From NCBI GenBank assembly GCA_029263095.1, contig JAJCYA010000002.1, forward strand, positions 32,511 through 96,510: 64,000 bases of DNA. Reading direction: 5' to 3'. Of this stretch, positions 39,661 to 44,123 are shown piece by piece; positions within the stretch are counted from its first letter, which is position 1; each line of letters opens with the position of its first letter. This DNA comes from Acidimicrobiia bacterium (GTDB lineage: Bacteria > Actinomycetota > Acidimicrobiia > Spongiisociales > UBA11373). The translations under genes were made by a program, and so were the position numbers. A model generated the notes under the pieces. It was not told where the DNA came from and searched no databases. It saw only the letters and a list, made by a program, of their open reading frames with translations.

Positions 39661-39720
39661 AGGAGCATCATGCCCGCCAGGTGTGACACAAAACGAGCAA
39701 ACCGAGAGGGTCGGACTGAG

Positions 39721-39803
39721 ATGAACATAACCCTCCAGGAAGTGGGCCTGACCGGAGGGTCTAGTTCTCAGCCTGTCGGAAAGCCGACGTCTCTGAACGA
39801 CGA
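39721..39803 (+). pseudogene. Remnant (last ~15-25 codons) of a large serine recombinase C-terminus
   Basis: MNITLQEVGLTGG... parallels the '...APPMNVLLSEVGLKGG' ending of the longer remnant at 42432 and of actinobacterial serine recombinases. Confidence 0.35.
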
Positions 39804-39873
39804 CCCCAACGCGAATGAGTTCCGGCAAAGCCGGAACTCCCAAGGAACGCGAAGCGTTCCCGGTGTTGGAGAG
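39804..39873. repeat. 70-bp repeat copy 1, containing two perfect hairpins; its last 14 nt equal the tRNA-Leu 3' acceptor region
   Basis: CCCCAACGCGAATGAGTTCCGGCAAAGCCGGAACTCCCAAGGAACGCGAAGCGTTCCCGGTGTTGGAGAG. It is identical, bar one T/C, to 42758..42827. Confidence 0.8.
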
Positions 39874-39919
39874 AGGACTCGAACCTCCACGGGGTATTCC
39901 CCCACTAGGCCCTCAACCT
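39860..39919 (-). repeat. Partial copy (3' 60 nt, anticodon loop to 3' end) of tRNA-Leu(GAG), an att-type direct repeat
   Basis: 59/60 identity to 43998..44057. The match ends inside the anticodon stem, which is a classic integrase crossover position. Confidence 0.75.
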
Positions 39920-40157
39920 CGAACCGCTCTTGCAGGCCCGGCGTCCGGGGGGCAACTCGGTGCCCGTCGCTACGCCCCCGGGACACATTGTGCAGCTCCG
40001 AAGGGGGCGGTGGGGAGTCTCCGACCTGCCGATAGAGATGCCTTCATCGCGTTGCACCCACACCGTGGTCCGGGGGTGCCTGTCTGGGTGCCACAACCGG
40101 ATATCCGGTCCTTGCCTCACCTCCCCCCAGCCAAGTTTGGTGGCCTCAGTGTGGCTG

Positions 40158-40481
40158 TCAGGGCTTCCGGGTGGAGTCGTTCGGCGCATCGACGATCGTG
40201 AGGTCGCCGACGCGGTCCACGATCAGCTGAACGGCTCTGGAGTTCGTATTGATGTCCTTGTGCGGGATAGTCATCTTGATTACGCGGGCCGCTCTTCGAA
40301 TCTCTTCAGACCCTATGTTCTCCGAGAGTGACTTGTCTTTCTCGACCAGTTCCCGGGCCTGCTCGGGTGTGAGGTCCTCGGCCTTGTTGGCGGCGTAGAG
40401 ACCAATGACCCGTCTGTCCATCTCTGTGAGATCGAACTCGACGCTGAGCCGACGTTGATTCTGCTTTCGCTCCTCTGACAT
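40158..40481 (-). CDS. Small protein (107-111 aa) with a possible ribbon-helix-helix-like N-terminus, in an operon with the radical-SAM gene
   Basis: A strong SD GAGGAG lies 5 nt upstream of the ATG at 40481. The alternative GTG at 40493 overlaps the rSAM stop. RRLSVEFDLTEMDRRVIGLYA is a beta-strand-helix pattern. Confidence 0.55.
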   Translation of the reverse strand: MSEERKQNQRRLSVEFDLTEMDRRVIGLYAANKAEDLTPEQARELVEKDKSLSENIGSEEIRRAARVIKMTIPHKDINTNSRAVQLIVDRVGDLTIVDAPNDSTRKP

Positions 40482-40489
40482 TGCGCTCC

Positions 40490-42700: not shown

Positions 42701-42757
42701 ACAAGGGTGTCGGGTTGCGGGAGGGGGGAGTGATAGGCCTGGGAGCGATTGCGCGGC

Positions 42758-42827
42758 CCCCAACGCGAATGAGTTCCGGCAAAGCCGGAACTCCCAAGGA
42801 ACGCGAAGCGTTCCCGGTGTCGGAGAG
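42758..42827. repeat. 70-bp double-hairpin repeat, copy 2
   Basis: 69/70 identical to 39804..39873. It is followed by non-tRNA sequence that forms a 7-bp terminal inverted repeat (GTGTCGG...CCGACAC). Confidence 0.8.
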
Positions 42828-42929
42828 CCTTCGGTGGGTGAGTTAGACCCCGGTTGGCGGATCAGGCAATGGACCGACACAGTGCAAGGAGGTCGCCTCC
42901 ACCACTGATCAGACAGCCGAGCGTAGAAG

Positions 42930-43952
42930 TCAGGTCTCGGCTATCACCAACGTCCAACCGCTTGCCCAACGTGGCCCGACCGCCGACAAACCGGCGGCCT
43001 CTGAACCGCCGAAACCGGAGGCCCGCAGCATCCGTTGAATGTCGCCGGAAGTCTGAGGCGTCGTCGCATTGCCCGAGAGTGAGGCCAGCAGCGCCCAATG
43101 GGCCCGGCTCGGATGCGCCAACCCGCTCTCTTCCCCGAACTTGCCCACGATGATGAGCCGCCCTCCCGGGTTCAACGAGGCGAAGAACTTGCGAAACAAA
43201 CCTTCGGTGTAGATGCCAACGTCGCAATAGACGATCGCATCGAAACCGCTCGGTAGGTCCTCGGCCATGAAGTCAAGGGTCTGGTAGCCGATGCGTCCAG
43301 CGAGGCCAGCCGCATCGGCGATCTCTTGACCTGCAGCACAGACGTTGGCGATGTCAACCACCACCGCCTCGAGGTTGGGATTGCATCGCAGCATGGCCAG
43401 CGACACGACGCCAGAGCCACCCCCGACATCCAGCAGACGTTCAGAGCCGTCGAGAGGGACGAGGTCGGCGACCTGCTCGGCGAGCGGCAAATGCACCTCG
43501 TAGAGCATCTGAGTGAACTCCGACGCACGCTTTGGATCGTCGATCATCTTGGCGAGATAGTCGGGCCGGACAAGGCCCTGCGCCTCCCAGGGAGTCCCCG
43601 GTTCAGTGAGCTGGACGGCGAGATCGCGAACTGCGGGGAACCTCTCTCGGGCCTCCCGGGCCAGGTAGGCCCAGGTCTCCGAGCTGAAGGCATCATTGAT
43701 CGCCTGGCGCGCTGCTATCGACGTCGAGTATCCGTCCGCACCTCGATCCAGCAGGCCCAGCTCGACGATCATCTCCAGCCAGGGGTGGCACCGCTCCTCG
43801 GGGACTCCCGTCGCCTTGGCGACCTCCCTGACAGTCAGGGGCCGCTCATCGAGGAGCCAGAACAGTTTGTGCTCCATGGCCGCCCCGACGGCAGCGGACG
43901 CCACGTAGCGATCGATCAGCTCAAAGATGCTGTCGGGGGTCATTGGACTCAT
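42930..43952 (-). CDS. Class I SAM-dependent O-methyltransferase (family-2 OMT with an N-terminal winged-helix dimerisation domain)
   Basis: LLDVGGGSGVVSLAML (motif I), VVVDIANV, and a C-terminal OMT fold. Confidence 0.8.
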   Translation of the reverse strand: MSPMTPDSIFELIDRYVASAAVGAAMEHKLFWLLDERPLTVREVAKATGVPEERCHPWLEMIVELGLLDRGADGYSTSIAARQAINDAFSSETWAYLAREARERFPAVRDLAVQLTEPGTPWEAQGLVRPDYLAKMIDDPKRASEFTQMLYEVHLPLAEQVADLVPLDGSERLLDVGGGSGVVSLAMLRCNPNLEAVVVDIANVCAAGQEIADAAGLAGRIGYQTLDFMAEDLPSGFDAIVYCDVGIYTEGLFRKFFASLNPGGRLIIVGKFGEESGLAHPSRAHWALLASLSGNATTPQTSGDIQRMLRASGFGGSEAAGLSAVGPRWASGWTLVIAET

Positions 43953-44000
43953 GACCTATGAGTATGACACCCGTCCACCCAAACAACCCCGGGGGTCGCC

Positions 44001-44085
44001 GGTGTCGGAGAGAGGACTCGAACCTCCACGGGGTATTCCCCCACTAGGCCCTCAACCTAGCGCGTCTGCCAATTCCGCCACTCCG
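44001..44085 (-). tRNA. tRNA-Leu(GAG), type II with a long variable arm; CCA is not encoded
   Basis: GTCGGAGTGGCGGAATTGGCAGACGCGCTAGGTTGAGGGCCTAGTGGGGGAATACCCCGTGGAGGTTCGAGTCCTCTCTCCGACA. The D-arm is near-identical to E. coli tRNA-Leu, and the anticodon stem-loop CTAGG-TTGAGGG-CCTAG gives GAG. Confidence 0.9.
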
Positions 44086-44123
44086 ACGTGGGTCCGGGAT
44101 TATACGCCCGTGACGCGGATGCT

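Follow-up and report, generated by a model that had tools for sequence, protein, structure and literature searches.

Islands at the ssrA gene of Dehalococcoides carry a CcrB-like large serine recombinase beside the attachment (att) site and a 20-bp direct repeat; several islands occur in tandem downstream of this gene, and some units devoid of the integration module were read as cis-mobilizable or fixed (McMurdie et al. 2011, PMC3146451). The target of these islands is the transfer-messenger RNA (tmRNA), with insertion inferred in the T-loop, and their 6-gene integration module includes a second small recombinase (PMC3146451). In Mycobacterium, serine recombinases of actinomycete integrative and conjugative elements (AICEs) integrate into a tRNA-Leu gene, and serine-recombinase integration into tRNA genes was called rare (Ghinet et al. 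2011, PMC3218068). Tandem accretion and cis-mobilizable elements are associated with the ICESt1 family (Pavlovic 2004, as cited in PMC3146451), while tandem arrays of integrative genetic elements (IGEs) present serial tRNA integration, degenerate integrases and partial tRNAs (Mageeney 2020, PMC7192596). Among the tycheposons of Prochlorococcus, 910 of 937 elements have tyrosine recombinases and the others large serine recombinases (Hackl 2020, 10.1101/2020.12.28.424599). Here, we analyze a tRNA-Leu(GAG) locus of an Acidimicrobiia bacterium that is probably a nested array of decayed large-serine-recombinase elements. It lies in a stretch of 64,000 nucleotides (GenBank assembly GCA_029263095.1, contig JAJCYA010000002.1, positions 32,511 to 96,510 of the forward strand), hereafter called the window, and all positions are counted from the first letter of that stretch.

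ARAGORN found a single tRNA gene in the window, tRNA-Leu(gag), which is intact and ends at 44087 instead of the previously given 44085. In the initial annotation, this gene and a 60-bp copy of its 3' part were taken as the two ends of one degenerate island of ~4.1 kb. A repeat finder recovered that direct repeat (39860-39919 vs. 43999-44058), exact alignment confirmed 59/60 identical positions, and a 25-nt probe taken from it matched the two sites only, with 0 matches in 100 shuffles. The partial copy does end within the anticodon stem, in its 5' strand (...CCCTCAACCT, 39919). A second direct repeat had been overlooked, namely 39804-39873 and 42758-42827 (69/70 identical). When 42828-44012 is deleted, 42758-42827 joins 44013-44058 and forms 116 nt that are identical at 115/116 positions to 39804-39919; the two repeats are therefore parts of one long repeat, X-c-t, of which the 60-bp repeat is the inner part. 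In this notation X is a 56-nt segment, while c stands for the initial 14 nt of the tRNA 3' end (its acceptor 3' strand) and t for the other 46 nt of the 60-nt repeat, from the T arm to the anticodon stem. Within the right copy of X-c-t, 1,185 bp have been inserted at c, with duplication of 14 nt. X folds into two strong hairpins (-28 and -30 kcal/mol, z -5.1 and -3.3), and both of its copies are preceded on the plus strand by the end of a recombinase frame, reading ...HLEVEVSGAPPMNVLLSEVGLKGGP at 42425-42660 and MNITLQEVGLTGGS at 39720-39760. The internal junction at 42425-42900 thus presents a recombinase tail, X, 14 nt of the tRNA 3' end and a conserved element arm. Together with the 116-nt reconstruction, this junction shows that the presumed single island consists of two nested units, M and N, the parts of which are as follows (ORF, open reading frame; recA and recB are our labels for the two recombinase remnants):

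39649-39789, plus strand: recA, C-terminal tail remnant (~47 codons) of an older large serine recombinase.
39784-39803, plus strand: 20-nt stub of an element arm of the second type (CCGACGT...), immediately following a degenerate core, c0.
39804-39919, plus strand: left copy of the 116-nt repeat (X 39804-39859, c 39860-39873, t 39874-39919).
39920-40157, no strand: non-coding left arm of M, with no family match for its leftover ORFs.
40158-40481, minus strand: 107-aa ORF downstream of the radical-SAM gene, M cargo (exact protein recorded as P0133).
40490-42298, minus strand: B12-binding radical-SAM enzyme, M cargo (Pfam B12-binding and Radical_SAM).
42425-42660, plus strand: recB, ~80 codons from the C-terminal end of a large serine recombinase gene whose catalytic part is deleted, at the right end of M.
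42758-42827, plus strand: X and c, the outer 70 nt of the right repeat copy (c, 42814-42827, is the left 14-nt repeat of N).
42828-42929, plus strand: conserved left arm of N (CCTTCGGTGGGTGAGTTAGACCCCGGTTGGCGGATCAGGC...), with ~50 nt after the core conserved in 7 independent loci.
42930-43952, minus strand: O-methyltransferase, N cargo (Pfam Methyltransf_2 and Dimerisation; exact protein P0134, 337 aa).
43999-44012, plus strand: c, the right 14-nt repeat of N; the inner portion of the long repeat begins here and runs to 44058.
44001-44087, minus strand: intact tRNA-Leu(GAG), the integration target (ARAGORN; Rfam tRNA, 50.7 bits).

On the plus strand, the recA tail with c0 is followed by a 76-nt relic (arm stub and X), c and t to 39919, unit M, X and c again, unit N, and finally c, t and the remainder of the intact tRNA, beyond which lies an opp-like ABC operon. 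Unit M (39920-42757) comprises the non-coding arm, the 107-aa ORF, the radical-SAM gene, the recB remnant and a spacer; unit N (42828-43998) comprises the conserved arm and the O-methyltransferase gene, and sits inside the right repeat of M between the 14-nt repeats. In other words, N has short repeats and a methyltransferase as its sole cargo, while M has 116-nt repeats and keeps of its recombinase a remnant only.

The two remnants connect the locus to a family of recombinases, whose loci and contigs are designated here by L numbers. The recombinase remnant reported in the initial annotation proved real: it aligns with ~80 residues at the C-terminus of full-length large serine recombinases, and recB is 72-85% identical at the nucleotide level to recombinase tails in 13 loci. 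The second remnant, recA, had been overlooked; it is matched by residues 507-550 of the L011 recombinase (tblastn, E 7e-6), shares 81-89% identity with the recombinase tails of L003, L006, L010 and L011 (blastn), and ends in c0 (CTGTCGGAAAG, 39769-39783), after which the stub starts like the post-core arms in L011, L017, L019, L020 and L027. The 84-residue recB remnant, used as a query, matched only short ORFs from Actinomycetota and Acidimicrobiia metagenomes, which run either into tRNA-Leu antisense or into the conserved arm. Accordingly, two forms of the C-terminus occur: GVGERTRTST, which is the tRNA-Leu acceptor and T arm read in antisense, and GVGEPxxDESDPGWRIRxW, the same sequence as after c at 42828 in the window. 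The recombinase frame crosses the att core into the tRNA antisense (in the proteins P0001-P0010, at L003 6097-6372 and at L006 1-264), and the last 10-25 residues therefore differ between a tRNA junction and an element-arm junction.

Relatives were collected by scanning one genome per species, which gave 18 loci, and in 11 of these tRNA-Leu(gag) follows directly after the recombinase tail, in convergent orientation. The full-length proteins of L010, L011, L012, L015, L017, L020 and L023 contain the Pfam domains Resolvase, Recombinase and Zn_ribbon_recom, which makes the family one of large serine recombinases; L019 and L021, outside the Pfam-scanned set, have open frames of comparable length. 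Identity among the family members is 41-87%, and the best match in phage and plasmid collections, to Listeria A118-type integrases, reaches at most 28% identity, so these collections hold no close annotated relative. The elements measure ~1.5-5.4 kb, contain one recombinase and 1-4 cargo genes, and are bounded by an 11-15-nt GTGTCGGAGAG repeat at the acceptor/T-stem border, for instance:

L010, repeat at 5662 and 10241 (15 nt): element of 4.6 kb, recombinase nearly full length.
L020, repeat at 4997 and 7787 (11 nt): element of 2.8 kb, two full-length recombinases in tandem.
L022, repeat at 4783 and 10201 (15 nt): element of 5.4 kb.
L007, repeat at 2152 and 3673 (13 nt): element of 1.5 kb.

At the far junction, an arm of ~50 nt is conserved in seven loci, including the window at 42828 onwards (alignment A5). 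A second arm type begins CCGACGTGAACC and forms, together with the core, the palindrome GTCGG-aga-CCGAC. As judged from sequence, the 11-15-nt repeats and the conserved arms fit an att model of serine integrases in which a short core would hold a central crossover dinucleotide and recombination of two att sites would leave hybrid ends. The place of insertion can be read from L007 and L008, which have the left flank and the remnant in common: L007 continues into the tRNA and L008 into the conserved arm, indicating that new elements insert between an old recombinase tail and the tRNA body. In L014, a 224-kb contig of an unrelated genome, an 88-nt block made of recombinase tail, c and t stands at 10206-10293, and its other copy is divided, with the left 40 nt at 6390-6429 (97.5% identical) and the right 51 nt at 8018-8068 (100%). 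The 1,588-nt insert that splits this copy at c|t begins with the same conserved arm, and no recombinase-tail match was found inside it. L014 is an independent parallel of the nested design.

Several other loci show the family in different states. In L020 (3583-7871), two full-length family recombinases of 477 aa each, 45% identical, stand in tandem, with a core and a 179-aa ORF resembling 2'-5' RNA ligase between them. The second recombinase gene lies right against tRNA-Leu(gag), and the locus looks like a live example of accretion. In L011, L012, L015, L017, L019, L021 and L027, a long and apparently full-length frame is followed by GTCGG-aga-CCGAC or degenerate T-arm sequence, with no tRNA-Leu in up to 10 kb downstream; several of these contigs are 0.2-1.5 Mb long, and the seven junctions may be attP-like sites (attP, the att site of an element) inside chromosomes. 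In the 75-kb contig L001 (9762-10306), an 80-aa ORF with a weak Zn_ribbon_recom match precedes the tail remnant and the adjoining tRNA is so degenerate that ARAGORN finds none; L001 is thus a locus of this type in more advanced decay.

On these grounds, we propose that the 3' side of tRNA-Leu(GAG) acts as an accretion site for small elements of one large serine recombinase family, which targets this tRNA in many Actinomycetota. Intact members carry their recombinase gene at the right end, converging on the tRNA, and the last codons are acceptor-stem antisense; they are bounded by the 11-15-nt repeat c and bear the conserved arm at the far end. Each new element would enter between the previous recombinase tail and the tRNA body. 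In the window, the first layer would be the old recA tail (39649-39789) and the 76-nt gutted relic ending in X. The second would be M, its recombinase cut to the last ~80 codons and flanked by the 116-nt X-c-t, and its layout is that of the family: the cargo lies on the left, and the recombinase occupies the right end and points to the tRNA. The third would be N, which has no recombinase and would have been inserted at c in the right repeat of M, duplicating 14 nt. This order of events, as well as a crossover at c for M, is suggested by the arrangement of the junctions.

The statement of the initial annotation that no intact integrase is present holds across the entire 64-kb window. The catalytic domain of the family recombinase is absent from it, two C-terminal remnants (42425-42704 and 39649-39789) being all that was found, neither of them with Resolvase, Recombinase or zinc-ribbon domains; M and N are therefore probably immobile at present unless a family recombinase acts in trans. 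An autonomous element able to supply the enzyme was not seen, as the window contains no full-length family recombinase. A Pfam search of the M and N ORFs likewise returned no replication (RepSA, RepAM, Prim-Pol) or FtsK-like transfer genes, and the same applies to ten element ORFs of L010, L011 and L020, which mostly match no Pfam family and have no replication or transfer domains. Horizontal acquisition, also proposed in the initial annotation, is borne out by related genomes. L006, an Acidimicrobiia metagenome-assembled genome (MAG), and L010 are collinear with 44001-53980 of the window (the tRNA and the opp-like ABC operon), and have the recombinase directly on the orthologous tRNA. M and N are missing from both; L010 has another element of the family, and the L006 contig begins in the recombinase tail.

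Compared with the described systems, the array is a known kind of genomic island, produced by tandem accretion, and not a new mechanism. With the Dehalococcoides ssrA islands it shares the serine recombinase, the tRNA-like 3' end, the short repeat, the tandem units and the units without an integrase. It differs from them in its target (the acceptor/T-stem border of tRNA-Leu(GAG)), in the single recombinase, in element size (~1.5-5.4 kb with 1-4 cargo genes) and in phylum. The Mycobacterium AICEs are likewise actinobacterial elements with a serine recombinase and a tRNA-Leu target, but they have replication and FtsK-like transfer genes, which neither M and N nor the ten ORFs of L010, L011 and L020 contain. 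In accretion arrays such as those of ICESt1, the IGEs and the tycheposons, successive integrations also push older elements away from the target, partial tRNAs lie between units, and fragmented integrases and integrase-less units persist; most of those arrays, however, use tyrosine recombinases, while the present one has an added 116-nt repeat extending from the anticodon stem to 56 nt past the tRNA. M and N are flanked by att repeats and have neither recombinase nor transfer genes, as is characteristic of cis-mobilizable elements. Some usual marks of tRNA islands are also present in that an intact tRNA stands at one boundary, a repeat of the tRNA 3' end at the other, and the insert is absent in relatives; an own recombinase gene is not among them. 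Small serine-recombinase elements with tRNA-Leu(GAG) as their specific target may form a family not yet described.

Long att identity is familiar from actinomycete elements with tyrosine integrases (58 nt in pSAM2, 112 nt in SLP1). Classical tyrosine-integrase islands at tRNA genes also share with this locus an identity that runs from the anticodon region past the tRNA 3' end and the combination of intact and partial tRNA ends. The model of the initial annotation can be cast in these terms: a single element of 4.1 kb (39920-43998) would have arrived in one step by a crossover in the anticodon loop, and its tyrosine integrase would since have been lost. The 60-nt repeat would then be attL and attR, the left and right att sites, and the internal junction of recombinase tail, X, c and arm would be a passenger, either the captured tRNA-Leu flank of another genome or the internal attP of a serine-recombinase element. 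We regard this account as unlikely, even though the 60-nt identity, which starts in the anticodon stem and reaches the tRNA 3' end, lies where it typically does with tyrosine integrases, L013 and L014 share its end point, and the neighbor of that point in L013 is homologous to 39920-39999. Neither a Phage_integrase domain nor a remnant of a tyrosine recombinase was detected in the ORFs and leftover ORFs of 39768-43153; only ~600 nt of the segment are non-coding, and the leftover ORFs have no matches. The sole traces of an enzyme are tails of large serine recombinases. The 69/70 repeat of X and c would be left as a coincidence, whereas the nested arrangement unites both repeats in 116 nt. Moreover, the internal junction has the conserved arm by which element ends are recognized in 6 other loci, and L014 is an independent nested case. 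What stands of the initial annotation is that DNA was inserted at the 3' side of tRNA-Leu, is bounded by tRNA-3' repeats and has no working recombinase; a textbook tRNA integrase is not what the locus points to, since the family is one of large serine recombinases with a core of 11-15 nt at the acceptor/T-stem border.

An assembly artifact is more improbable still. M would here be a separate 2,954-bp circle or a strain variant that was threaded into the contig via the shared 60-116-nt repeats, and the tandem arrangement would exist in no single cell. The repeats approach short-read length and the contig is metagenome-assembled. In addition, an independent k-mer unitig, L033 (equal to 39890-42787), stops 30 nt into each repeat and consequently cannot order the pieces. 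However, the junctions of t with the left end of M and of the recB spacer with X are both present in that unitig, the same nested architecture occurs in the unrelated L014, and a circle of 3 kb with no gene for a recombinase or for replication would be unlikely to persist at assembly-level coverage. The view that there was no site-specific history, the repeat having arisen by local duplication or homologous recombination beside the tRNA and the genes being native, is barely credible: it draws on cargo codon usage and GC content at third codon positions (GC3) typical for the window and on O-methyltransferase homologues (61-64%) that include one from an Acidimicrobiia MAG and whose examined context is ordinary, but the repeat ends coincide with a family core and arms conserved in many genomes, the recombinase remnants lie exactly where the family puts its gene, relatives with the same right flank do not have the cargo genes, and the radical-SAM gene has no close relative.

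Returning to the nested array of serine-recombinase elements, which we prefer, several observations weigh against it in addition to the closeness of the repeats to read length and the assembly of the contig from a metagenome. The repeat of M is 116 nt long vs. 11-15 nt in intact family members. The window, L013 and L014 all have its inner end at one and the same base of the anticodon stem, and an identity block between the anticodon stem-loop and the tRNA 3' end is classical for tyrosine integrases; M may thus owe its insertion to a different crossover or a different enzyme. Either the arm of M-type elements is a captured copy of the tRNA, or a second system acts here. X was found in no relative, which means that both recombination partners must already have carried it, and the nested model explains X only by a gutted earlier element. 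At the right end of N there is no recombinase remnant, which calls for a deletion with its end exactly at c or for mobilization of N in trans. Finally, atypical composition, another usual mark of tRNA islands, was not observed: the codon usage of all cargo genes is within the window range, and the GC content of M (0.604) is slightly under that of the window (0.632), with N at 0.636. The comparison of composition and codon usage that the initial annotation proposed is therefore not discriminating, as it does not set the cargo apart.

The gene calls of the initial annotation for the two enzymes in the cargo hold, the Pfam domains being those listed above. For the radical-SAM gene, the best NCBIfam matches are ApyD-, PhpK- and BchE-like, all far under the cut-offs; its exact protein (P0013) is recorded on an NCBI contig of 179,203 nt and in a Logan unitig, the next homologue is just 48% identical, and the few named matches come from distant phyla. 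The small ORF beside it had been labeled ribbon-helix-helix (RHH)-like, a label we drop because no Pfam or NCBIfam match and no RHH fold were found. An ORF of ~103-107 aa also follows radical-SAM homologues in the unrelated contigs L034 (7001-9162) and L035 (7001-9308), and the three small proteins have weak similarity (16-31% identity) and the motif ..V.FDL..E.. in common. Gene and ORF thus look like a conserved two-gene module, perhaps an enzyme and its peptide or protein substrate. The recorded O-methyltransferase protein begins 3 residues after the first ATG. Among its homologues, which are 61-64% identical and include one from an Acidimicrobiia MAG, the context of one was examined (61% identical, L037/L038); it is an ordinary genomic setting without a tRNA link and gives no evidence that N recurs as a unit.

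The first ~80 nt of the left arm of M (39920-39999) are homologous to L013 (75% over 139 nt), where the homologous sequence adjoins a similarly truncated tRNA-Leu fragment. A search for this arm in viral contigs (pattern CTCGGTGCCCGTCNNNACGCC) gave 5 matches, all of them by chance inside unrelated coding sequence, and a pure c-type reading that would add an inverted 8-mer similar to the core near 40017-40030 was abandoned because support was too weak. For X, metagenome contigs were queried with hairpin 1 and the start of c. The one match, L036, has hairpin 1 and CGGTGT at 60-140, just after an ORF end (..GQLNELGLRLLPPAT*) resembling a recombinase tail; a different sequence follows, with no tRNA, and this is too little to settle the origin of X, although it gives a hint that in some elements hairpin 1 is part of the arm on the recombinase side.

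Two further regions border the array:

38578-39660, minus strand: gene for a DUF222 and HNH endonuclease protein (Pfam DUF222, HNH; start codon inferred from the translation).
44124-46210, minus strand: two neighboring paralogous ABC ATPase genes (ABC_tran and oligo_HPY).

The DUF222 gene abuts or overlaps the recA remnant, its start lying inside it, and is possibly part of the older layer, although its membership is uncertain. In M. tuberculosis, the REP13E12 repeats, which belong to the DUF222/HNH protein family, hold attB (the chromosomal att site) of the phiRv1 serine integrase. The ABC paralogues are the source of the repeat families D4, D6 and D9 (spacing ~1091 nt) and form an ordinary opp/dpp-type operon that is collinear with L006 and L010. 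We also considered 12-44 kb as one island, an idea that came from the left anchor gene of L010 mapping 32 kb from the tRNA. It was rejected, as the ten ORFs examined at 11.4-30 kb are ordinary chromosomal genes or have no match and include no recombinase, and no more core copies exist to the left.

A broader reading is possible and, taken as a whole, is offered tentatively. The locus would belong to an undescribed, widespread family of minimal cargo elements (~1.5-5.4 kb) in Acidimicrobiia and other Actinomycetota, in which a distinct clade of large serine recombinases would target the acceptor/T-stem border of tRNA-Leu(GAG) specifically. The 3' end of the recombinase gene would overlap the att core, and its C-terminus would change with the integration state. 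Recombinase-less units (N and the 1,588-nt insert of L014) would be mobilized in trans, and tRNA-like arms would create long repeats that mimic the footprints of tyrosine integrases.

For the Acidimicrobiia bacterium, the nested array would mean that the radical-SAM gene with its partner ORF and the O-methyltransferase gene are accessory genes from two separate events, and that mobile elements have left a multi-layer graveyard at the locus. It also calls for caution in the reading of tRNA loci, as a long repeat of half a tRNA proves neither a tyrosine integrase nor a single island, and the same picture can be obtained from nested insertions at the core of a serine recombinase. A compact tRNA-specific serine integrase with a core of ~11 nt and an arm of ~50 nt would be a candidate tool for high-GC Actinomycetota, and the recombinase family may be of modest wider interest.

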